Of a stretch of 64,000 nucleotides of DNA, positions 221 through 11,014 are shown one piece after another. The notes under the pieces were generated by a model. That model was given only the letters and a program-made list of their open reading frames with translations, made no database searches and was not told the DNA's origin. This stretch comes from Armatimonadota bacterium (GTDB lineage: Bacteria; Armatimonadota; Hebobacteria; CAIYQO01): the NCBI GenBank assembly GCA_038248345.1, contig JBBRXO010000003.1, positions 9,361 to 73,360 of the forward strand. Direction: 5' to 3'. How positions within the stretch are numbered: position 1 is the first letter of the stretch; every line of letters begins with the position of its first letter. Position numbers and translations under genes: made by a program.

Positions 221-1000
221 ATGAGTGCAACAATCGCAGTTACCGGGAAGGGAGGGGTCGGAAAAACCACCATCTCTTCCCTTATTATTCAGTGGCTCGT
301 AGCCACCGGGAAGTCGCCAGTACTGGCGGTGGATGCGGATAGCAACGCCAATTTGAACGAGGCACTCGGTGTTGAATACCGGGCATCTGTAGGCGGAATT
401 CGCGAAGATGCACGTAAAGTAGTAAAAGAGTTGGCGGGCATCGCCAAGCAGGAGTTCCTTGACCTGCAGGTGCAAGCGGCGTTGGTAGAGGAAGAGGGTT
501 ACGACCTGATCGTGATGGGACGCCCGGAAGGTCCGGGTTGCTATTGTTTTGCCAACAATGTACTGCGCGAAGTTATACAGCGGCTGGCGAACAACTATAG
601 CTATATTGTCATTGATAATGAGGCCGGGCTTGAACATCTGTCGCGCCGCACCGTGCTATCAGTTGATTATCTGATCATCGTCTCGGACTGCTCGGTACGG
701 GGGGTACGTACCGCCGGTCGCATCGCCGCGCTGGCGCAGGAGATGGGCACACCTGTGAAAGAGCGCGGTTTGATTGTCAACCGGGTGCCGGGTGGTGTCT
801 TACCCGCTGGTGTGCAGGCAGAGGTGGCGGCCACCGGGTTGACATTGCTGGCGGCTGTTCCGCATGATGCCAGTGTCGCCGAGATGGATGGCGGCGGTTT
901 TGCAGTCGCTTCAATACCTGCCGATGCACCTGCCCGTACGGCCATTAATATTTTACTCACAAATCTGATGTCCCGCGAGCCGGTGATATCTACGACATAA
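221..1000 (+). CDS. cooC: CO dehydrogenase/ACS nickel-insertion ATPase (CooC/AcsF)
   Basis: GKGGVGKTT deviant Walker A, DADSNANL, GPGCYC metal site, DNEAGLEHLSRR; adjacent to cooS. Confidence 0.93.
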   Translation: MSATIAVTGKGGVGKTTISSLIIQWLVATGKSPVLAVDADSNANLNEALGVEYRASVGGIREDARKVVKELAGIAKQEFLDLQVQAALVEEEGYDLIVMGRPEGPGCYCFANNVLREVIQRLANNYSYIVIDNEAGLEHLSRRTVLSVDYLIIVSDCSVRGVRTAGRIAALAQEMGTPVKERGLIVNRVPGGVLPAGVQAEVAATGLTLLAAVPHDASVAEMDGGGFAVASIPADAPARTAINILLTNLMSREPVISTT

Positions 1001-1045: not shown

Positions 1046-2998
1046 ATGTCAAACGCGCTAGATCAAAGCCCAGCGGATACTCACTCAATCGATCAGGCTA
1101 TCAATACGATGATAGGCGTCGCCAAGAGTGAAGGTATCGCCACAGTATGGGATCGTTATAAGACCCAGATGCCCCAATGTAAATTCGGGCTCACCGGTGT
1201 TTGCTGTAAAATATGCCATATGGGGCCGTGCCGTATTACGCCGAAAGCCCCGTTAGGGATATGTGGCGCCAATGCTGATACCATTGCTGCCCGCAATTTG
1301 CTACGCGAGATCGCCGCCGGTACCGCGGCGCACTCCGATCATGGTCGCCACCTGGTGAAGACACTGCGCCAAGTAGCGCAAGGACGTGGTGGAACCTATA
1401 AGATCACTGATCCACATCGTCTGCATGAGGTTGCCAGCGCATTTGAGATTGAGACGGAAGGGCGCGATGACCTGGCGATTGCCGGGGATTTGGCGGACTT
1501 TTGCTTCCAGCAATTTGCTTGGTCAGAAGAGCCTAACTTCACCTTGCGGATGGCGCCGGAGAAACGCCAGGCGTTGTGGAAAAAGTTGGAGATTGAACCG
1601 CACGGGATTGATGCCGCAGTAGTGGAGTTGATGCACCGCACACACATGGGCGTCGACCACGATTACCGTCACCTTATCATGGGTGGGCTAAAATGCTCAA
1701 TCGCGGACGGTTGGGTAGGGTCATTGATCGCCACTGCGGTGTCAGACATTTTGTTCGGAACGCCGAAGCCGTTGCGGAGTACTGTTAATCTCGGTGTCCT
1801 CTGTGATGATAAAGTGAATATCATCGTCCATGGGCACGAGCCTACGCTCTCCGATATGCTCGCAGTTGCCGCTATGGATGATGAGCTACTTGCTTATGCT
1901 AAGTCGAAAGGCTCTGATGGCATAAATATCGCCGGTATTTGCTGTACCGCCAATGAGGTATTGATGCGGCACGGCCTGCCAATCGCCGGTAATTTCCTGC
2001 AACAGGAGTTGGCTATCATCACTGGCGCAGTCGAGATGATGATCGTAGATGTGCAATGTATCATGCCGTCGTTGCCGGAAGTGATGAAGTGTTTCCACAC
2101 CAAGCTGATTAGCACATCTGAGATAGCGCAGACAATTAACGCAGAACAGATTAACTTCGAGGTGGAGCATGGGTATGAGCAAGCTTGTGATTTGATTCGT
2201 ATGGCTATTGATAACTTCGCGAATCGCGATAATTCACGAGTGAATATCCCCAAGGAATCAATGGATCTGGTAGCAGGGTTTTCTAACGAGGCCATTTTCC
2301 AGATGCTCGGTGGGCGCTTCCGCAGCACTTTCCGCCCGCTCAATGATGCAATTATTGATGGGCGTGTCCGTGGCGTGGTAGGTATCGTCGGTTGCAACAA
2401 CCCGAAGGTACGTACCGACGAATCGCACGTAATACTCACTCGCGAGTTGATCAAAAATAACTACCTGATATTGGAGACCGGCTGTGCCGCTATCGCCTGT
2501 GCGAAGAATGGTCTGCTAACACCGGAGGCTGCATTAGAATTTGCTGGTGACTCACTGCGTGAAGTCTGCGAAGCGGTGGGAATACCACCGGTGTTGCATA
2601 TGGGTTCATGCGTGGACAACAGCCGTATTCTACTCGCCGCCACCAACGTCATGCTTGAAGGCGGGCTGGGGACAGATCTCTCTGATTTGCCGGTAGCTGG
2701 CGCCGCGCCCGAGATGATGTCGGAGAAGGCTGTCGCCATCGGGAGTTATTTCGTCGCTAGCGGCGTTTATGTGGTGTTGGGGCAGCCCCTCTATGTGGAA
2801 GGCAGTGAGAACGTCACCAAGCTCCTCACAGAAGAGATGGAAGATATCACTGGTGGTAAATTCGCCTGGGAGCCAGATCCGTTGAAGGCTGCAAAATTGA
2901 TTATGGATCACATCGAGAAGAAGCGTGATGCCCTGGGCATCAATGCCAAGAAGGAGCGAAAGTTGTACGACATGAAAGAGCGGAGGGAGCTTCAATGA
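1046..2998 (+). CDS. cooS: Anaerobic Ni-Fe carbon monoxide dehydrogenase catalytic subunit (CooS/AcsA)
   Basis: CKFGLTGVCCKICHMGPC..GICG B/D-cluster motif; C-cluster ligands in HGHEP, GICCT, DVQC, VGCNN, TGCA, GSCVDN; SEKA; RBS AGGAG upstream. Confidence 0.97.
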   Translation: MSNALDQSPADTHSIDQAINTMIGVAKSEGIATVWDRYKTQMPQCKFGLTGVCCKICHMGPCRITPKAPLGICGANADTIAARNLLREIAAGTAAHSDHGRHLVKTLRQVAQGRGGTYKITDPHRLHEVASAFEIETEGRDDLAIAGDLADFCFQQFAWSEEPNFTLRMAPEKRQALWKKLEIEPHGIDAAVVELMHRTHMGVDHDYRHLIMGGLKCSIADGWVGSLIATAVSDILFGTPKPLRSTVNLGVLCDDKVNIIVHGHEPTLSDMLAVAAMDDELLAYAKSKGSDGINIAGICCTANEVLMRHGLPIAGNFLQQELAIITGAVEMMIVDVQCIMPSLPEVMKCFHTKLISTSEIAQTINAEQINFEVEHGYEQACDLIRMAIDNFANRDNSRVNIPKESMDLVAGFSNEAIFQMLGGRFRSTFRPLNDAIIDGRVRGVVGIVGCNNPKVRTDESHVILTRELIKNNYLILETGCAAIACAKNGLLTPEAALEFAGDSLREVCEAVGIPPVLHMGSCVDNSRILLAATNVMLEGGLGTDLSDLPVAGAAPEMMSEKAVAIGSYFVASGVYVVLGQPLYVEGSENVTKLLTEEMEDITGGKFAWEPDPLKAAKLIMDHIEKKRDALGINAKKERKLYDMKERRELQ

Positions 2999-5900
2999 GT
3001 AAGATAATCGCCGCCTCCGCAATTAGAGGCGCTCATAAAATTGTCAATGACGCAGAAGCTATGGTTCGCAAGGCCATAGCAGAAAAGGGCGCTGACTGCG
3101 AGGTTGGATTCCCTGATACTACCTATTATCTACCGGTTATTTATTCTTTACTCGGTAAAAAAGTAGAGAAACTGGCTGACATGGAAGATATCCTGGCGGA
3201 ATGTCGCAATCTGTTGCCACCCATACCGCGCGACGGCATCTGGCTCCCGTATCTGGGCGGTACGCTTGACTCCGGCATGGCTACACTATTTGCCTTTGAG
3301 CTGATCGAGGCGTGCAAATACCTTATCGGTCCCAATCCGGTGAACGGCATATGGCTAGGAGCCGCGGGCGATGTCATCATCCGTGAGCGCGGTATTGAGT
3401 TCGTCGATGGCTCCGCCCCTGGCTTTGCCGCCGTGGTAGGAGCGGCACCCGATAAAGAGACCGCCGTGAAGATAGCCCATGAGCTGCAGGAGAAGAACCT
3501 CTATATCTTCCTGGCGGGCAATACCAATGGCGTCTCCTTCGCAGAGCAACTGGAAGAAGCGGGCGTGGAACTGGGCTGGGATACGCGCCTGGTGCCCTTT
3601 GGCAAAGATATATCCTCCGCTGTTTACGCGCTGGGGTTTGCCAATCGTGCAGCGCTCTCCTTCGGCGGTGTTAAGCCGGGTGACTATGCGGCAAACTTGA
3701 AGTACAACAAAAACCGCATCTTCGCTTTTGTTATGGCTCTCGGTGAAGTGACAGATGAAGACTATGCGGCGGCTGCTGGAGCTATCTCCTACGGTTTCCC
3801 CACCATCGCCGATACTGACATACCGGAGATTTTGCCCACGGGAATCTGCACGTACGAGCATGTGGTGGCAAATATCCCCCATGACCGTATTGTGGAGAAA
3901 TGCCTGGAAGTGCGTGGCTGTAAGATCAAAATCACCAAAGTACCCATCCCGGTATCATATGGCGCGGCTTTCGAAGGTGAGCGTATCCGCAAGGAGCAGA
4001 CCTTTGTAGAATTCGGCGGCAACAAGACGCACGGGTTTGAGTATGTAACCACTAAAGAAATAGCGGATGTAGAGGACGGCAAGATGACCGTCATCGGCCC
4101 TGATGTAGATGATGTGGAGGCAGGCAGCGCTCTGCCGCTAGCCATCTGGGTTGAGGTCGCCGGACGCAAAATGCAGCCGGACTTTGAGCCGATCCTGGAA
4201 CGTCAGATACATCACCTCATCAACGGTGCCGAAGGCATCTGGCATATGGGACAACGCGACATCATCTGGATGCGCATCAGCAAAGCCGCCAAGGAAAAAG
4301 GCTTCAGCATCAAACATTTCGGTGAGATCATTCACGCGAAGTTGCTCAATGAGTACCCGGCCATCGTGGACAAAGTGCAGGTAACGCTGGTTACCGATAA
4401 GGACGAAGTAGAGCGACGGTTGGACATTGCGCGGCGCAGCTATCGCGAACGCAACCTGCGCGTAGAGTCGATGACTGACGAGAGCGTTGACACCTTCTAT
4501 TCATGTCTGCTCTGCCAGAGTTTCGCCCCCAACCATGTCTGCGTCATCACGCCGGAGCGACTGGGTCTCTGCGGCGCTTACAACTGGTTAGACGGCAAGG
4601 CCGCCTATGAGATTGACCCCACCGGCCCCAATCAGCCGCTCATCAAAGGTGAATGTATCGATCCGGTGCGCGGGCAGTGGAAAGATATCAACGAGTACGT
4701 CTACTCTAACTCTAAGCAGACCATTGAGCGTTTTAACGCTTATTCAATGCTGGAAGACCCGATGACCAGTTGTGGCTGTTTTGAGGCTATCGTCGCCATG
4801 CTGCCGGAGTGCAATGGGGTGATGATCGTCAACCGTGAGTTCCCCGGCGATACTCCGGCGGGAATGCGATTCTCTACACTGGCGGGGAGTACGGGGGGCG
4901 GGCAGCAGACTCCCGGTTTCATCGGCGTCGGCAAAGCCTATATTGTCAGTAAGAAATTCATCTCGGCGGAAGGCGGGCATAAGCGCATCGTCTGGATGCC
5001 GCGTGAGCTGAAAGAAGCGCTGAAAGAAGACCTGGAGTTGATCGGCAAACGTCTCGGTATTGAGAACTATTGTGATCTTATCGCAGATGAGACCGTCGGG
5101 TCAGATACCGCCTCTGTCAACGCCTATATGCAGAAGGTCAATCACCCGGCGCTGACCATGTGGGATGTAACCACCCCTTCACCGGAATGCGCTGCCATTG
5201 ACGCTGCGCGCGGCGTTGTAGCTGCTACCGCTCCAATTGAGGCGGATGCTCCGGTGGTAACAGCAAATGTAGAAAAAGCAGCAGCGCCAGTCGTTGCCGT
5301 GGCACCGACAGCAGTTGCTGTGGCCGCCCCGGCGCCAGTGGTAGCTGCAAATCAAGTAGATGGTCTGTCCTATGTCATATCAGTACTTGATAAAGTGCGT
5401 GCCACGGGCGTTGCACCGGTTGCTGGTACCAATATGGATCAGCAGATGGCCGCCTTGCAGATGTCCACCGCGGTGAATCTGCTGACAGCTGGCGCCAATA
5501 TGCTGCTAATGTACAGTGGCGCACTCGGCCAGGTACCGGTGGCTCCTGTTGCGTTGCCTATTGCTCACACGGCAGTAACGGAAGTAGATGTGGCAGTGGC
5601 TCCGACGGTTCACCCGATAGCTGCCACATGGGATACCCCGATACTGGTTAAAGAGAAACTGGTTACCTCGGCGAAAATTGCCGTCCCCGCTACCTTTAAG
5701 ATACCGGGCGAAAGCGCTAGCTTGTCAGTTCGTGAGGTCACCCTTGGTGGTAGTGGTACGCGCACCTCGTCGCTCACCCTCGGTGGAGCCAGCGTATTGC
5801 CCTTCCGCCATTACGAGGGTAACATTGGGCGCACTCCGGCAATTGCTATGGAGGTATTTGACCGTCTGCCACGCAACTACCCACAGTCATTGCGGGACGC

Positions 5901-6648
5901 CTACGGAGATATGCTCACCGATGCGCCGAAGATGGCGAAGTACTGCGTCGAGGAGCTAGGCGCGCAGGCAATCAGCATTCGTTTGGACAGCACCCACCCG
6001 GACAATGAGGACACCTCTCCGGCGGCCGCGTGCGACTTTGTACAGGGCGTGCTTAGTGCCGTCGGTGTGCCGATTATTGTCACCGGCCCCAGCCATTACG
6101 AGAAGAACAATGCCGTGATGAAACAGGTAGCAAGCACCTTCACTGGCGAGAACTTGCTGCTGAACTGGGTGGAGACGGATAACTACAAAACCATCGCCGC
6201 CGCCGCCATGGCATATAACCATTGTATTGTGACGCAGACCCCGATTGACGTGAATATGGCTAAACAGTTGAATATTCTCGTCACTAATATGGGGCTAGCT
6301 CCCGAAAAAATCATCATCGACGCGCTGACCGGCGCGCTGGGGTACGGTCTGGAGTACACTTACTCGGTGATGGAGCGTATCCGTAGCTCGGTCTTCACCG
6401 GAGACAGTATGCTGGCATTGCCGATGTTAGGCACGCCCGGCTACGAGATCGCCAAAACAAAAGAAAGCAAAGCGCCGCAAAGCTCCTTCAAAAATTGGGG
6501 CCCAGAGAGCGAGCGGGGCGCATTACTGGAGATCGCAACTGCGATGAGTTTGCTCAATGCTGGCGCTGATCTGCTGGTGATGTATCACCCCATCGCGGCA
6601 ACAACCGTGAAGAAAAAAATTGCCGAGATGACTCGGTTAGAGGACTAA
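2995..6648 (+). CDS. acsB: Fusion of bacterial acetyl-CoA synthase (AcsB) and corrinoid Fe-S protein small subunit (AcsD) via an Ala/Val/Pro-rich linker
   Basis: aa ~1-720 are AcsB (CLLCQSFAPNHVC, GLCG, TSCGCFE, ending HPALTM). aa ~900-1217 are AcsD (VREVTLG, TPIDVNMAKQLN, GYGLEYTYSVMERIR, AGADLLVMYHP). One uninterrupted frame; ATGA overlap with the cooS stop. Confidence 0.93.
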   Translation: MSKIIAASAIRGAHKIVNDAEAMVRKAIAEKGADCEVGFPDTTYYLPVIYSLLGKKVEKLADMEDILAECRNLLPPIPRDGIWLPYLGGTLDSGMATLFAFELIEACKYLIGPNPVNGIWLGAAGDVIIRERGIEFVDGSAPGFAAVVGAAPDKETAVKIAHELQEKNLYIFLAGNTNGVSFAEQLEEAGVELGWDTRLVPFGKDISSAVYALGFANRAALSFGGVKPGDYAANLKYNKNRIFAFVMALGEVTDEDYAAAAGAISYGFPTIADTDIPEILPTGICTYEHVVANIPHDRIVEKCLEVRGCKIKITKVPIPVSYGAAFEGERIRKEQTFVEFGGNKTHGFEYVTTKEIADVEDGKMTVIGPDVDDVEAGSALPLAIWVEVAGRKMQPDFEPILERQIHHLINGAEGIWHMGQRDIIWMRISKAAKEKGFSIKHFGEIIHAKLLNEYPAIVDKVQVTLVTDKDEVERRLDIARRSYRERNLRVESMTDESVDTFYSCLLCQSFAPNHVCVITPERLGLCGAYNWLDGKAAYEIDPTGPNQPLIKGECIDPVRGQWKDINEYVYSNSKQTIERFNAYSMLEDPMTSCGCFEAIVAMLPECNGVMIVNREFPGDTPAGMRFSTLAGSTGGGQQTPGFIGVGKAYIVSKKFISAEGGHKRIVWMPRELKEALKEDLELIGKRLGIENYCDLIADETVGSDTASVNAYMQKVNHPALTMWDVTTPSPECAAIDAARGVVAATAPIEADAPVVTANVEKAAAPVVAVAPTAVAVAAPAPVVAANQVDGLSYVISVLDKVRATGVAPVAGTNMDQQMAALQMSTAVNLLTAGANMLLMYSGALGQVPVAPVALPIAHTAVTEVDVAVAPTVHPIAATWDTPILVKEKLVTSAKIAVPATFKIPGESASLSVREVTLGGSGTRTSSLTLGGASVLPFRHYEGNIGRTPAIAMEVFDRLPRNYPQSLRDAYGDMLTDAPKMAKYCVEELGAQAISIRLDSTHPDNEDTSPAAACDFVQGVLSAVGVPIIVTGPSHYEKNNAVMKQVASTFTGENLLLNWVETDNYKTIAAAAMAYNHCIVTQTPIDVNMAKQLNILVTNMGLAPEKIIIDALTGALGYGLEYTYSVMERIRSSVFTGDSMLALPMLGTPGYEIAKTKESKAPQSSFKNWGPESERGALLEIATAMSLLNAGADLLVMYHPIAATTVKKKIAEMTRLED

Positions 6649-6661
6649 AGGGAGCACGAAG

Positions 6662-8005
6662 ATGGCATTAACTGGTCTGGATATCTTTAAAATATTGCCC
6701 AAAACCAACTGTACTGAATGTGGCGTGCCCACTTGTATGGCATTTGCCATGAAGTTGGCCGCCAAAAGTGTCGAGCTCTCCGCTTGTCCGTATGCCTCGG
6801 AAGAGGCAAAGACAAAGATCGGCGCGGCGAGTAAGCCCCCGATCAGGTTGGTCAAACTCGGGCCAACTGATCGTGAGGTGTTACTGGGGAACGAAACCGT
6901 GATGTTTCGTCACGAGAAGACCTTCGTTCATCCCCCAGCCTTCGCAGTAGCCTTCTCCGATGAGCAATCAGCGGGCGACCTGGCGCATCTCACCGCTACT
7001 GTGCGTGAATATTGCCTGGAGCGCGTGGGTGAGGAGCTTACTCTCGATCTGGTACTGATTGAAAACACCAGCGAAGAGGTAGAGCCGTTCATAGCCGCTA
7101 TCCGCGCAGTGGCGGCCAGCGCCGGACGCGGGGTGATCCTGAAGAGTAGCAACGTGGCGGCTCTGGAAGCTGGTGCGCAATTGCTGGAAGGTCAGCGTCC
7201 CTTATTACATGCGGCGACCACCGAAAATGTGGATGCCGTGGCAGCTATTGCGCTGAAATACAAATGCGCGGTGGTAGCGCAGGCCGCGACGCTGGATGAA
7301 CTGGCGGCGCTGACAAAGAAGCTGGCCGCGCTGGGTGTGCAAGATATCGTGCTCGATATCCCGGCGGATAATATCGCGGCTACGCTGCAGAATAATACCC
7401 TTGCGCGTAAGGCGGCATTGAAGACCGCTTTTGAACCGATGGGCTACCCGGTCATCAACTTCGTTGTAGAGGAAGACCTGCCCAGTCTGGTGGCAGATGC
7501 TTCGACTTTGATCTGTAAATACGCGTCGATCCTGGTGATAGATACACTTTCCTATCAGGCGCTATTGCCGTTGATGATGTTACGGCAGAATATCTATACC
7601 GACCCGCAGAAACCGATCCAAGTAGAGCCGAAGATCTACCCCATCGGGGAGCCGGATGATAATTCACCGGTACTGGTTACTACCAACTTCTCGCTGACAT
7701 ACTTCATCGTTTCGGGAGAGATTGAGAACTCAGGTATATCCGCGCACCTCGTTATTGTCGAATGCGAAGGGATGAGCGTGCTTACCGCCTGGGCAGCCGG
7801 GAAGTTCTCCGGCGAGAAGATCGCGCAGTTCATCAAATCCTCCGGCCTGGAACAGCAGGTTAAAACCCGCCGCCTCATCATCCCCGGCTATGTCGCGCAG
7901 ATCAGCGGCGACCTGGAAGAGGGGCTGAAAGGCTGGGAGATAGTCGTCGGACCGCAAGAAGCATCCGACCTGGGGCCGTTTATGAAGCTACAGGTGGGTA
8001 AGTAA
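6662..8005 (+). CDS. acsC: Corrinoid iron-sulfur protein large (gamma) subunit
   Basis: LPKTNCTECGVPTCMAFA..CPY, ETVMFRHEKTF, RQNIYTDPQKP, TTNFSLTYF, SVLTAWAAGKF. Confidence 0.97.
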   Translation: MALTGLDIFKILPKTNCTECGVPTCMAFAMKLAAKSVELSACPYASEEAKTKIGAASKPPIRLVKLGPTDREVLLGNETVMFRHEKTFVHPPAFAVAFSDEQSAGDLAHLTATVREYCLERVGEELTLDLVLIENTSEEVEPFIAAIRAVAASAGRGVILKSSNVAALEAGAQLLEGQRPLLHAATTENVDAVAAIALKYKCAVVAQAATLDELAALTKKLAALGVQDIVLDIPADNIAATLQNNTLARKAALKTAFEPMGYPVINFVVEEDLPSLVADASTLICKYASILVIDTLSYQALLPLMMLRQNIYTDPQKPIQVEPKIYPIGEPDDNSPVLVTTNFSLTYFIVSGEIENSGISAHLVIVECEGMSVLTAWAAGKFSGEKIAQFIKSSGLEQQVKTRRLIIPGYVAQISGDLEEGLKGWEIVVGPQEASDLGPFMKLQVGK

Positions 8006-8054: not shown

Positions 8055-9977
8055 ATGCCTATAGTTCGCTTTCTACCCGGCAATACCACTGTAGAAGTCC
8101 CCGTTGGCACTCTCATTCATGAGGCGGCTATCAAGGCGGGGATAGAAGAGTTACATCTTCCATGTGGTGGTAAAGGTACATGCGGGCGGTGCCTGGTGGA
8201 GATCGTTGAGGGCACGACAGATGGGGTGGGACACTCGCATTTGGCCGATGCTTTGGCTGGCGGGCGGCTAGTGATGGCGTGCCAGACGAAGGTGCGCGAG
8301 GATATAACCGTTGGCATACGCCCCAAGCATGATGACACTATGCGGGTGGTGGGTGACAGTCATTTGCTCATCGGCGATGACCTGTTGCCGGATATTGATG
8401 ATCTCTCACCGCTCTACCGCTTTGTGCAATTGACGGTACCCGAGGCATCAATTGAAGAGCATTATAGTGACTGGCAACGCATCGTACGGCTGTTAGGCGA
8501 CTGGGATCGCACATTGCCAACTTGCCCCCTGAACGTTACAACCGATATTACAGTATTACGTCAGCTAGCCGAGGTATTGCGAGCACAGGATGGCCGTGTG
8601 ACAGTGACTATCCGCGAGGAAGATGCCGGTATACACGTTCTAGCGGTGGAAGCCGGGCATGTGGAAAAGAAAGCCTATGGGCTGGCAATCGACATCGGCA
8701 CAACCACCGTGGCAGTGCAACTGGTTGACCTGGTTGCGGGCCGTGTAATAGCGAGTCGTACTTCTTATAACGCACAGATTCGCCGTGGTGGTGATATCAT
8801 CAGTCGTATCGACTACGCTCGCACACCAGAGCGGCAAGAGGAATTACGTGGGCTGGTGCTGGAGACATTGCGTGAATTGATCGCAGATACTCTCGCCTGT
8901 ACGCGTACTGATTCGCAAGCGGTGTATGCAGCTTTCATCGCTGGCAACACTACCATGATCCACCTGCTACTCGCCCTGCCTCCGCGATACATTCGCGAGT
9001 CACCATACGTACCCACCGTCAACACCGTGCCAACGCTTACCGCCGCCGAAGTGGGACTACCGATCAACCCTACCGCAATAGTATCCTGCGCGCCGGGGGT
9101 GGGTAGTTATGTGGGCGGCGATATTACTGCTGGATTGCTCTGCACCGAGTTGACGACTAACAGCGAAGAGGTGTTTCTCTTTTTGGATATCGGCACCAAT
9201 GGTGAGATTGTGCTGGGTAATGCCGATTGGTTGGTCACCTGCGCCTGCTCTGCCGGGCCAGCTTTTGAAGGTTCTGGTATCAAGTGCGGTATGCGCGCAA
9301 CTGACGGCGCTATTGAATACTTCGCTATAGCACCTGGAATGCAGGAGATTAGCTACGATGTTATCGGTAATGGTAAACCAGCGGGTATCTGCGGTTCTGG
9401 CCTGATTTCGCTACTGGGCGAGTTACTATTGCGCGGTGTGGTTGACCAAATGGGGCGTTTCAATATGGAGCTGCCCACCGACAGGCTTATAAAAACACCT
9501 AACGGTAATGCCTTCGTGCTGGAGTTTGCCGCTGAGACGCAAGCTGGTGCTGACCTTTTCATTACCGAGGCAGATATTGAAAACCTGATGCGCACGAAAG
9601 CGGCGATTTATGCTGCTTGCGCGCTCATACTCGATAATGTCGGATTGGCTTGGAGCGCAATATCGCATGTCTATATCGCAGGTGGTTTTGGGCGCTATAT
9701 CCAGATAGATGACGCTATCATGATCGGGCTGTTGCCTGACTTGGAGGCCGAACGCTTCCATTATATCGGCAACTCCGCCCTCACTGGCGCTTATATCGCT
9801 TTGTTGACCGCCAAGGGCCGGCAGCAACTAGCCACCACCGCTGCGCGCATGACCTACATCGATTTAAGTAGCGATCATCGCTACATGGACAGCTACCTAG
9901 GCGCACTCTTCCTGCCACATACAGATATGACGCAATTCCCCACCGTGGCGGAGAAGATGATGGCGGCGCGGGCATAA
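8055..9977 (+). CDS. acsV: Reductive activator of corrinoid protein (RACo/AcsV; 2Fe-2S plus ASKHA ATPase)
   Basis: CGGKGTCGRC..ACQ 2Fe-2S motif; DIGTTT, DIGTNGE, SAGPAFEG, GICGSG, AGGFG. Confidence 0.92.
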   Translation: MPIVRFLPGNTTVEVPVGTLIHEAAIKAGIEELHLPCGGKGTCGRCLVEIVEGTTDGVGHSHLADALAGGRLVMACQTKVREDITVGIRPKHDDTMRVVGDSHLLIGDDLLPDIDDLSPLYRFVQLTVPEASIEEHYSDWQRIVRLLGDWDRTLPTCPLNVTTDITVLRQLAEVLRAQDGRVTVTIREEDAGIHVLAVEAGHVEKKAYGLAIDIGTTTVAVQLVDLVAGRVIASRTSYNAQIRRGGDIISRIDYARTPERQEELRGLVLETLRELIADTLACTRTDSQAVYAAFIAGNTTMIHLLLALPPRYIRESPYVPTVNTVPTLTAAEVGLPINPTAIVSCAPGVGSYVGGDITAGLLCTELTTNSEEVFLFLDIGTNGEIVLGNADWLVTCACSAGPAFEGSGIKCGMRATDGAIEYFAIAPGMQEISYDVIGNGKPAGICGSGLISLLGELLLRGVVDQMGRFNMELPTDRLIKTPNGNAFVLEFAAETQAGADLFITEADIENLMRTKAAIYAACALILDNVGLAWSAISHVYIAGGFGRYIQIDDAIMIGLLPDLEAERFHYIGNSALTGAYIALLTAKGRQQLATTAARMTYIDLSSDHRYMDSYLGALFLPHTDMTQFPTVAEKMMAARA

Positions 9978-9998: not shown

Positions 9999-10089
9999 TG
10001 TAGGGGCACAAGGCTTGTGCCCAAGTCTTAACCATACGATTTGTATAATAGAAAACTCGGAAAGAGGGCACATGCCATGTGCCCCTACA
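9999..10089. repeat. REPIN-like doublet, GTAG-type REP (copy 1)
   Basis: TGTAGGGGCACAAGGCTTGTGCCC ... GGGCACATGCCATGTGCCCCTACA, two small hairpins in inverted orientation; near-identical ends recur at 57830-57927. Confidence 0.85.
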
Positions 10090-10117
10090 ATATTTAACGG
10101 ATACAGGAGGACTAATT

Positions 10118-11014
10118 ATGAAATCACTTCTCGAACGCCTTGCCGCCGGTGAGATCCTTATCTCAGACGGGGCCATGGGCACTTTCCTTCAGGCGAAGGG
10201 CCTGCAACCCGGCGAATCTCCTGAGGCGTGGTGTTGCTCGCATCCGGACGCTGTGAAGAGTATTGCCGAGGCTTACATTGCTGCTGGCTCGGATATTGTT
10301 GAGACCGATTCCTTCGGCGGCACTACTTTCAAGCAGCGCGAATTCGGTCTGGCAGATAAGGTTGATGAGTTCAACACTGCCTCTGCCAAGCTAGCCAAAG
10401 AAGCCATGGGCGACAAAGGCTATGTGGCGGCATCGGTAGGCCCCACCGGGCAAATTGTCGAGGATGAGGGCGGCGATGTCACCGAAGAAGAGCTTTATGA
10501 AGCCTTCAAACAGCAAGTAATCGCGCTGGCCGCTGGCGGTGCCGATGCGGTCTGTATTGAAACCATGTCATCCGTTACTGAGGCAGTGCAAGCCATCAAA
10601 GCCAGCAAAGATAACACTGACCTGCTGGTGATTGCTACCTTCACCTTCGAGCCAGGTGCGCACGGCTTCCGCACAATGATGGGCGTCACCCCTTCGCGCG
10701 CCGCCGGGGAATCGGTGGCCGCCGGCGCCGACATCATTGGCGCTAATTGTGGCAATGGCATCGCTAATATGATTGAGATCACCCGCGAATTGCGCGCCGC
10801 CGCCCCTAATACCCCGATCCTTATCCACGCGAACGCTGGTATGCCGGTATTTGAAGACGGCAATACCGTATTCAAAGAGACTCCTGCCGACATGGCAGCC
10901 CGCGTAAAGGAATTGGTCGAAGCTGGAGCCAATATAATTGGTGGTTGCTGTGGCACCACGCCTGCGCATATAGCAGCGATGGCAGAAGTGGCACGGGGAT
11001 GTGGAAAAAGCTAA
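10118..11014 (+). CDS. Stand-alone homocysteine S-methyltransferase domain (MetH N-terminal domain-like)
   Basis: DGAMGT, GANCG and GGCCGTTP Zn ligands, NAGMP. Start moved to ATG 10118 behind RBS AGGAGG. No pterin- or B12-binding domains. Confidence 0.9.
   Translation: MKSLLERLAAGEILISDGAMGTFLQAKGLQPGESPEAWCCSHPDAVKSIAEAYIAAGSDIVETDSFGGTTFKQREFGLADKVDEFNTASAKLAKEAMGDKGYVAASVGPTGQIVEDEGGDVTEEELYEAFKQQVIALAAGGADAVCIETMSSVTEAVQAIKASKDNTDLLVIATFTFEPGAHGFRTMMGVTPSRAAGESVAAGADIIGANCGNGIANMIEITRELRAAAPNTPILIHANAGMPVFEDGNTVFKETPADMAARVKELVEAGANIIGGCCGTTPAHIAAMAEVARGCGKS

Follow-up and report, generated by a model that had tools for sequence, protein, structure and literature searches.

A conserved, apparently AcsD-derived island of two predicted helices in the linker of a bacterial AcsB-AcsD fusion protein

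Introduction

Carbon monoxide dehydrogenase (CODH) and acetyl-CoA synthase (ACS), together with a corrinoid protein, lie at the heart of the Wood-Ljungdahl pathway. Structural work is actively asking what keeps the methyl carrier close to ACS during its shuttling; the bacterial complex was studied by cryo-electron microscopy in 2024, and a scaffold of the archaeal complex was described in 2026. Residues 45-68 of Methanosarcina acetivorans CdhD, within the disordered N-terminal region of that protein, are reported to assemble into a hexa- or octameric coiled coil, which serves as scaffold for the complex of archaea, acetyl-CoA decarbonylase/synthase (ACDS), and the same source describes this N-terminal region as not conserved in bacterial AcsD (PMC13370988). 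The locus considered here belongs to an Armatimonadota bacterium and lies in a 64,000-nucleotide (nt) stretch of contig JBBRXO010000003.1 (assembly GCA_038248345.1, positions 9,361 to 73,360), hereafter the window. It encodes AcsB, the ACS enzyme, and AcsD, the small subunit of the corrinoid iron-sulphur protein (CFeSP), as a single chain of 1217 amino acids (aa). The two parts are separated by a linker of about 175 aa, and in the middle of this linker sits a conserved island (aa 789-848) that is very probably a partial copy of AcsD itself.

The island and the archaeal CdhD helix, as the latter is portrayed in PMC13370988, are both short conserved helical elements in a disordered stretch directly N-terminal of the AcsD/CdhD barrel, and both belong to a CODH/ACS-type complex and are flanked by tethers reaching ACS. 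The island occupies this position with respect to a barrel that starts at about aa 900. Unlike the archaeal element, the island has two predicted helices, appears to be derived from the barrel and lies within a covalent AcsB-AcsD fusion.

A second likeness is found in an unrelated enzyme system. The peripheral-subunit-binding domain of E2, from the 2-oxoacid dehydrogenases, is the classic small docking domain on a swinging arm. Like that domain, the island is a tiny, putatively helical unit between Ala/Pro-rich flexible linkers in a multienzyme swinging-arm chain, as its two predicted helices and the composition of its arms indicate, but the Pfam model E3_binding has no match in the linker at E <= 10. 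By analogy, the island may be likened to such a docking unit on its swinging arm; it belongs to neither the E2 nor the archaeal CdhD family.

Full-text literature searches found no published description of the AcsB-AcsD fusion or of the island. Fusions of this family are widely distributed among uncultured bacteria of soil and peat, and they covalently tether partners of the pathway. A module in the middle of the tether that is constrained like the enzyme itself offers an object of about 60 residues from which the organisation of tethered complexes can be learned.

Relationship of the island to AcsD

Residues 789-848 are best explained, on sequence comparison, as a partial in-frame copy of two elements of the AcsD barrel, alpha6 and alpha7-beta8, and the homology can be asserted with high confidence. 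The initial annotation had drawn attention to two peptides in the linker that resemble AcsD, in the same order and with a shortened spacer, and alignment reproduces both the positions and the identities it gave. The first peptide, GLSYVISVLDKVR (aa 790-802, nt 5362-5400), is identical at 6/13 positions to AcsD aa 1118-1130 (nt 6346-6384), while the second, MAALQMSTAVNLLTAGANMLLMY (aa 818-840, nt 5446-5514), shares 12/23 residues with AcsD aa 1175-1197 (nt 6517-6585). The patterns common to island and AcsD are G-L-x-Y-x-x-S-V-x-x-x-x-R and A-x-L-x-x-x-T-A-x-x-L-L-x-A-G-A-x-x-L-x-M-Y, and the matched segments are 15 aa apart in the island, compared with 44 aa in AcsD.

The similarity survives correction for composition. 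The best local alignment of the linker with AcsD (Smith-Waterman, BLOSUM62) scores 68 and contains both segment pairs in order. Shuffling the 176-aa linker 1000 times never produces this score (mean 35.5, standard deviation 5.8, maximum 65), and neither does shuffling the island (65 aa) by itself 5000 times (mean 29.1, standard deviation 4.6, maximum 59; Gumbel p 9.9e-6). Control alignments of the island with AcsB and of the reversed island with AcsD each score 36. In profile comparison, hhalign aligns the island (116 sequences) with AcsD over 51 columns, again with both segments in order, at a probability of 95.2% and an E-value of 2.5e-8, which may be optimistic since the profiles are shallow (effective number of sequences 2.2-2.8). 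The same island profile obtains probabilities of 0.1% against AcsB, 0.4% against AcsC and 0.2% against AcsA.

The most independent test of homology searched 201 genomes of the same phylum in all six frames with the island profile. In the 2.98-Mb genome that contains the window, the profile matches a single place besides the island, window 6490-6600, which corresponds to AcsD alpha7-beta8 (E 4.3e-6). In eight genomes (G000 and seven relatives) the profile matches the island and, some 1.1 kb further downstream within one open reading frame (ORF), AcsD alpha7-beta8 as well, and three genomes without an island are matched solely at AcsD alpha7-beta8. The non-island matches of the profile are thus AcsD alpha7-beta8 in 11/11 genomes having any. 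Among 1.84 billion representative proteins, the island profile also finds a C-terminal fragment of AcsD (P0153) at E 1.3e-5.

AlphaFold2, applied to aa 780-1217 with an alignment of 116 fusions, yields a model with a mean predicted local distance difference test score (pLDDT) of 84. In this context the island is predicted to form two helices, aa 790-803 and 814-840 (model residues 11-24 and 35-61), with pLDDT 75-82 and a value of about 80 for helix 2, and when folded alone from a 26-row alignment it gives identical helices at a mean pLDDT of 69. Counting strands in the model, helix 1 would correspond to alpha6, and helix 2 to alpha7 followed by strand beta8, whose former residues (MLLMY) are modelled as the helical end of helix 2. 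Strand beta7, a short helix and a loop, about 29 residues in all, have been lost between the two segments. The initial description of the island as a copy of the C-terminal helices of AcsD therefore needs a correction: alpha6 and alpha7 appear to have been copied, but the second element extends into a strand, and the last AcsD helix, alpha8, has no copy in the island.

The two helices differ in character. With a hydrophobic moment of 1.29, helix 1 is amphipathic; helix 2, at 0.53, is not, and its highest Kyte-Doolittle value in any 19-aa window (1.24) falls below that of its buried AcsD counterpart (1.48). The flanks had been called flexible and low in complexity, which agrees with their hypervariability and with a pLDDT under 50 over aa 844-881 (model residues 65-102) in arm 2. 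The island is accordingly modelled as a two-helix unit between two disordered arms rich in Ala, Pro and Val.

Compared with the AcsD TIM barrel (PF03599; 4DJD chain D, 2H9A chain B, 9FZY chain E), the likeness consists of significant co-linear similarity over both segments. In Moorella AcsD, the residues equivalent to the parental aa 1118-1134 and 1171-1197 are at about 222-236 and 275-303. The island differs in its size of about 60 aa, in the absence of beta7, alpha8 and the barrel, in the predicted helical state of the stretch equivalent to beta8 and in its location in a disordered tether rather than in a folded domain. It reaches no Pfam or NCBIfam family threshold and is predicted to contain two helices rather than a complete (beta-alpha)8 barrel, so it is considered a derived fragment of PF03599 and not a member domain. 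Foldseek returned 0 matches in the Protein Data Bank (PDB) for the model of the island alone, and its best score in the ESM Atlas, 0.82, is under the level that carries any evidence.

Conservation and selection

Conservation was assessed in the 120 best homologues, in all of which the four Pfam families of AcsB and AcsD are present, with identities to the protein of the window down to 66% over the full length and 59% over aa 780-1217. Retention in other AcsB-AcsD fusions, on which the initial proposal depended, is nearly universal: 116/120 keep the island. In these 116 sequences, 18/27 positions of the helix 2 region (816-842) are at least 90% identical. The fraction of sequences carrying the majority residue is 0.82 for helix 2, compared with 0.855 for AcsB, 0.80 for AcsD, 0.34 for arm 1 and 0.30 for arm 2. 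Helix 2 is hence conserved as well as the catalytic domains but not above them. The idea that it is more conserved than its own counterpart in AcsD proved wrong (0.82 versus 0.86).

The ratio of nonsynonymous to synonymous substitution rates (dN/dS) was estimated from codon alignments of 37 full genes, with substitutions summed over 18 phylogenetically independent pairs. Along the chain, dN/dS is 0.070 in AcsB, 0.361 in arm 1, 0.136 in helix 1, 0.224 in the inter-helix loop, 0.072 in helix 2 (dS 0.87), 0.413 in arm 2 and 0.108 in AcsD. Helix 2 is under purifying selection as strong as that on catalytic AcsB, which bears out the initial suspicion, drawn from conservative substitutions, that the island is under selection. 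Within AcsD, constraint is strongest on the parental alpha6 (0.028). Since dS is normal in all regions (0.84-1.2 throughout, 0.87-1.17 in the island) while dN/dS is low, selection acts on the protein and not on the DNA.

Distribution and losses

In a scan of one genome per species, the island was found in 56 loci, all from metagenome-assembled genomes labelled as Armatimonadota, several families of Acidobacteriota and NC10/Methylomirabilales. A frame of at least 1190 codons is present in 36 of these loci, 11 encode AcsB, island and AcsD co-linearly across frame breaks and nine are cut by contig ends. The frame-broken loci (L023, L025, L031, L033, L039, L041, L046, L050, L054, L055 and L058) mostly carry 'MFD' isolate labels, and assembly errors or pseudogenes are candidate causes. 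In the phylum sample, 9/201 genomes have the island.

As far as the searches extend, the island appears to be restricted to the AcsB-AcsD fusion family. AcsB domains, AcsD domains or both are present in all 58 matches measuring 669-2130 aa. Thirteen shorter matches were examined and, except for two spurious repeat proteins, are fragments or frame-broken pieces of the fusion family; outside that examination are 20 further shorter matches, of which 10 carry an AcsD Pfam domain and 10 (106-255 aa) are unannotated.

The four fusions that lack the island have linkers of 77-95 aa. In FastTree and IQ-TREE phylogenies of the AcsB and AcsD columns, P0114, P0117 and P0120 are sister to the island-bearing P0047 (support 1.0; approximate likelihood ratio test (aLRT) 100), and P0122 groups with P0100, P0105 and P0109 (support 0.974, aLRT 97.7). 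Because the island-less proteins are nested within island-bearing clades in two places, their condition reflects two losses rather than the ancestral state.

The gene context of loss was followed in the first of these lineages, in genomes G034 and G060 (loci L059 at G034:C55, L060 at G060:C5 and L066 at G034:C49). Upstream of the fusion, both encode a mini-CODH (403-412 aa) whose similarity to AcsA, at 46-50% identity, is confined to residues 85-250 and 405-649; its N-terminal part and central third are missing. The fusion has none of acsC, RACo and the PF02574 gene beside it: a different contig carries acsC (70-71% identity) and RACo, and their neighbours there are a gene for an S-adenosylmethionine-dependent methyltransferase and a DUF6259 gene. 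Island-bearing relatives (L062-L065) have the gene order of the window. Loss of the island together with CODH reduction is a single evolutionary event, and it provides a lead towards a partner only.

A further locus of the same phylum, L061 (G027:C59), carries a diverged island (E 5e-12, against about 1e-30 elsewhere) and is listed together with G027:C28:18426-19211. The only AcsA match in this genome is 37% identical, its RACo match contains two stop codons, and no AcsC was found in it with the AcsC of the window as the query. The acs system of G027 may be decaying.

Possible functions of the island

The origin of the island and the constraint upon it are settled. In general terms, it is likely to be a tethered protein-protein interaction module sitting in the middle of a swinging arm. 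Helix 2 is near-invariant all round, including at Q817, Q822, S824, T825 and N835, and is not amphipathic; it must therefore be buried or enclosed by another protein surface. A two-helix piece taken from a TIM barrel exposes faces that were once packed on strands and helices, and self-association is the simplest way to bury them.

The preferred but tentative mechanism, which could well be wrong in its specifics, is that the island acts as a self-associating module or hub. The hydrophobic face of helix 1 would presumably pack on one face of helix 2, and the partner surface of helix 2 would be provided by a second copy of the island. Islands from fusion chains within one CODH/ACS complex, or from neighbouring complexes, would bundle, which would keep the CFeSP modules clustered near ACS while the arms let AcsD/AcsC shuttle. 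Self-association would also have offered an immediately selectable function to a newly excised fragment. Archaeal CdhD, with its coiled coil, supplies a precedent from this enzyme system. If such a role is correct, the island would be a clear example of a TIM-barrel fragment reused as an independent interaction element. A more ambitious version, which is unlikely as it stands, makes the island an assembly hub of a scaffolded, higher-order CODH/ACS-CFeSP complex in Armatimonadota, Acidobacteriota and NC10, resembling the archaeal ACDS but invented independently from an AcsD fragment and lost together with a functional CODH partner.

Several observations weigh against this line of interpretation, in addition to the shallowness of the profiles. 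A simple coiled coil would not need helix 2 to be so nearly invariant, and binding in a larger partner's groove would fit this equally well or better. The two losses show that the island can be dispensed with under some circumstances. No archaeal CdhD occurs among the examined matches of the island profile at E <= 0.001 in the 1.84 billion representatives (24 matches, of which 13 were examined, 10 others measure 106-255 aa and P0128 was judged by its Pfam domains only), so the parallel with the archaeal hub holds by analogy only. Finally, a profile search of the PDB places Moorella AcsD at the top, at the homologous residues, but with a non-significant E-value of 0.087, level with the M2 helices of acetylcholine receptors (E 0.1), and helix 2 by itself thus looks like a generic buried helix.

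The strongest alternative to self-association, possible if somewhat doubtful, is that the island docks on another subunit, either on the AcsC or AcsD barrel by mimicking the parental barrel-barrel contact, as a second docking site or decoy, or on AcsA. Conservation on every face of helix 2 is what a helix in a partner's groove would show, and the exceptional constraint on the parental alpha6 suggests an interface position. Precedent for contacts of this kind comes from Clostridium autoethanogenum, where the small subunit of CoFeSP is reported to dock to ACS domains A1 and A3 (10.1101/2024.08.05.606187). Helix 1 also reaches a pLDDT of about 80 when modelled with AcsD, compared with 67-70 alone, but this rise is small and confounded by alignment depth (116 versus 26 rows). 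The reduced CODH and the displaced acsC and RACo of G034 and G060 would fit docking on another subunit, with a hint of AcsA, but the association comes from one lineage and a single event. Docking on AcsC meets the further difficulty that its surface for AcsD is already taken by the AcsD barrel of the same chain in the assembled CFeSP.

It is very unlikely that the island is functional and conserved but resembles AcsD by convergence or chance, as a generic buried helix-turn motif that involved no duplication. The PDB result, in which AcsD stands level with unrelated M2 helices, is of the kind that this explanation expects. AcsC also contains 'SSNVAALEAGAQLL', a comparable unit whose place in the barrel is not homologous, which indicates that a helix-AGA-strand motif recurs in these barrels. 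A generic motif does not account for the match of both segments in conserved order, for a score that 0/5000 shuffles attain, for an hhalign probability of 95% when three controls give 0.1-0.4%, or for the return of the profile to AcsD alpha7-beta8 in every genome with a non-island match.

A nucleotide-level element, such as an internal start or an RNA structure, or a membrane-anchoring helix is a highly improbable source of the conservation. Gene callers began some fragments at M818 (P0134, P0135), but these come from frame-broken or cut contigs, and the normal dS of the island shows the DNA itself to be unconstrained. The customary transmembrane threshold on the Kyte-Doolittle scale is about 1.6. 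Helix 2 resembles pore-lining M2 helices, but its best window lies below that threshold as well as below the AcsD counterpart, and a single pass would leave the membrane between AcsB and AcsD. The suggestion in the initial annotation that the island is a fossil of the duplication that created the fusion, which would leave it neutral and without present function, is scarcely credible: truncation of the copy and its absence from 4/120 fusions are as expected of a relic, but helix 2 is constrained like AcsB at a dS equal to that of the fast-evolving arms, the island is retained across three phyla and the island-less proteins are nested as losses (aLRT 100 and 97.7).

The fused gene, its linker and its operon

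In the 1217-aa protein, one reading frame joins domains A1-A3 of ACS to the small-subunit barrel of CFeSP. Pfam assigns CODH_A_N to residues 22-110, CdhC to 318-472, ACS_CODH_B_C to 483-723 and CdhD to 914-1151, and NCBIfam recognises acetyl-CoA synthase (NF040764, aa 10-724, 1073 bits) and the delta subunit (NF003376, aa 902-1213, 357 bits). Among PDB sequences, the AcsD part matches 4djd_D (E 6e-79), 2h9a_B and 4c1n_B (both 2e-68) and 9fzy_E (7e-57), and it is modelled as an eight-stranded barrel. The coordinates of these features and of the neighbouring genes are collected in Table 1.

Table 1. Features of the acs locus and of the fused gene, in nucleotide positions of the window
Feature	Position	Strand	Basis
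cooC	221..1000		acs operon member
acsA (CODH, 650 aa)	1046..2998	+	Pfam Prismane; TIGR01702, 708 bits
acsB-acsD fused ORF, 1217 aa	2995..6648	+	ORF list, translation, Pfam, NCBIfam
Conserved extension past the canonical AcsB end, aa 725-739	5167..5211	+	Conservation profile, 120 fusions
Arm 1, aa 740-788, hypervariable A/V/P-rich tether	5212..5358	+	Conservation, dN/dS, composition
Island, aa 789-848, conserved module of two predicted helices	5359..5538	+	Conservation, hhalign, AlphaFold2, dN/dS
Helix 1 (predicted), aa 790-803, amphipathic, putative counterpart of AcsD alpha6	5362..5403	+	AlphaFold2, hhalign
Helix 2 (predicted), aa 814-840, putative counterpart of AcsD alpha7-beta8	5434..5514	+	AlphaFold2, hhalign
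Arm 2, aa 849-890, hypervariable V/A/P/T-rich tether	5539..5664	+	pLDDT, conservation, dN/dS
AcsD (CFeSP small subunit) TIM-barrel domain, aa 900-1217	5692..6648	+	PDB sequence matches, AlphaFold2
AcsD alpha6, aa 1118-1134, putative parent of island helix 1	6346..6396	+	Alignment, hhalign, AlphaFold2
AcsD alpha7-beta8, aa 1171-1197, putative parent of island helix 2	6505..6585	+	Alignment, hhalign, AlphaFold2, genome-wide search
acsC (CFeSP large subunit, 447 aa)	6662..8005	+	Pfam FeS and CdhD; NF003195, 562 bits
RACo	8055..9977		acs operon member
PF02574 homocysteine-S-methyltransferase-like gene, 311 aa, at the operon end	10079..11014	+	

No Pfam or NCBIfam model matches the linker (aa 725-900) even at E <= 10, and homologues have linkers of between 44 and 274 aa. 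The linker begins with a short extension of AcsB with the pattern T-x-P-S-P-E-x-A-A-x-D-A-x-R, in which T726, S729, E731, D736 and A737 are 82-97% identical; this extension is kept in 120/120 fusions, island-less ones included. Arm 1 consists of Ala (37%), Val (27%) and Pro (12%) to a large extent and measures 7-94 aa among homologues (median 60), while arm 2 contains 21% Val, 19% Ala and 12% Pro.

A second mini-motif, C-[PA]-x-C-[FLIV]-P, is found in arm 2, downstream of the island, in 18/120 fusions, and is absent from the protein of the window. Acidic residues usually follow it, often as T-E-E. The carriers include P0071, P0073, P0075, P0076, P0082, P0085, P0087, P0088, P0090, P0093, P0100, P0102 and six more, and those with a source name or a matched named locus belong to Acidobacteriota. 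The motif could be a metal or redox site.

The stop codon of acsA and the start codon of the fused gene overlap by four nucleotides (2995-2998), which suggests that the two are translationally coupled. The operon contains no AcsE-type pterin-binding methyltransferase, and PF00809 has one match in the whole genome (95.7% complete), which lies outside the operon and scores 59 bits. The methyl branch that feeds or drains CFeSP in this organism may therefore be unusual. This suggestion draws on window 10079-11014, L065:258-1313 and G000:C32:9861-10535. The best NCBIfam matches of the PF02574 gene that ends the operon are the homocysteine methyltransferase (Hcy-MT) half of PRK08645, and BHMT, both under the cut-off. 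In relatives, the operon starts upstream of cooC with a gene of 351 aa that has no Pfam match and a faint MetE-like match (E 2e-5).

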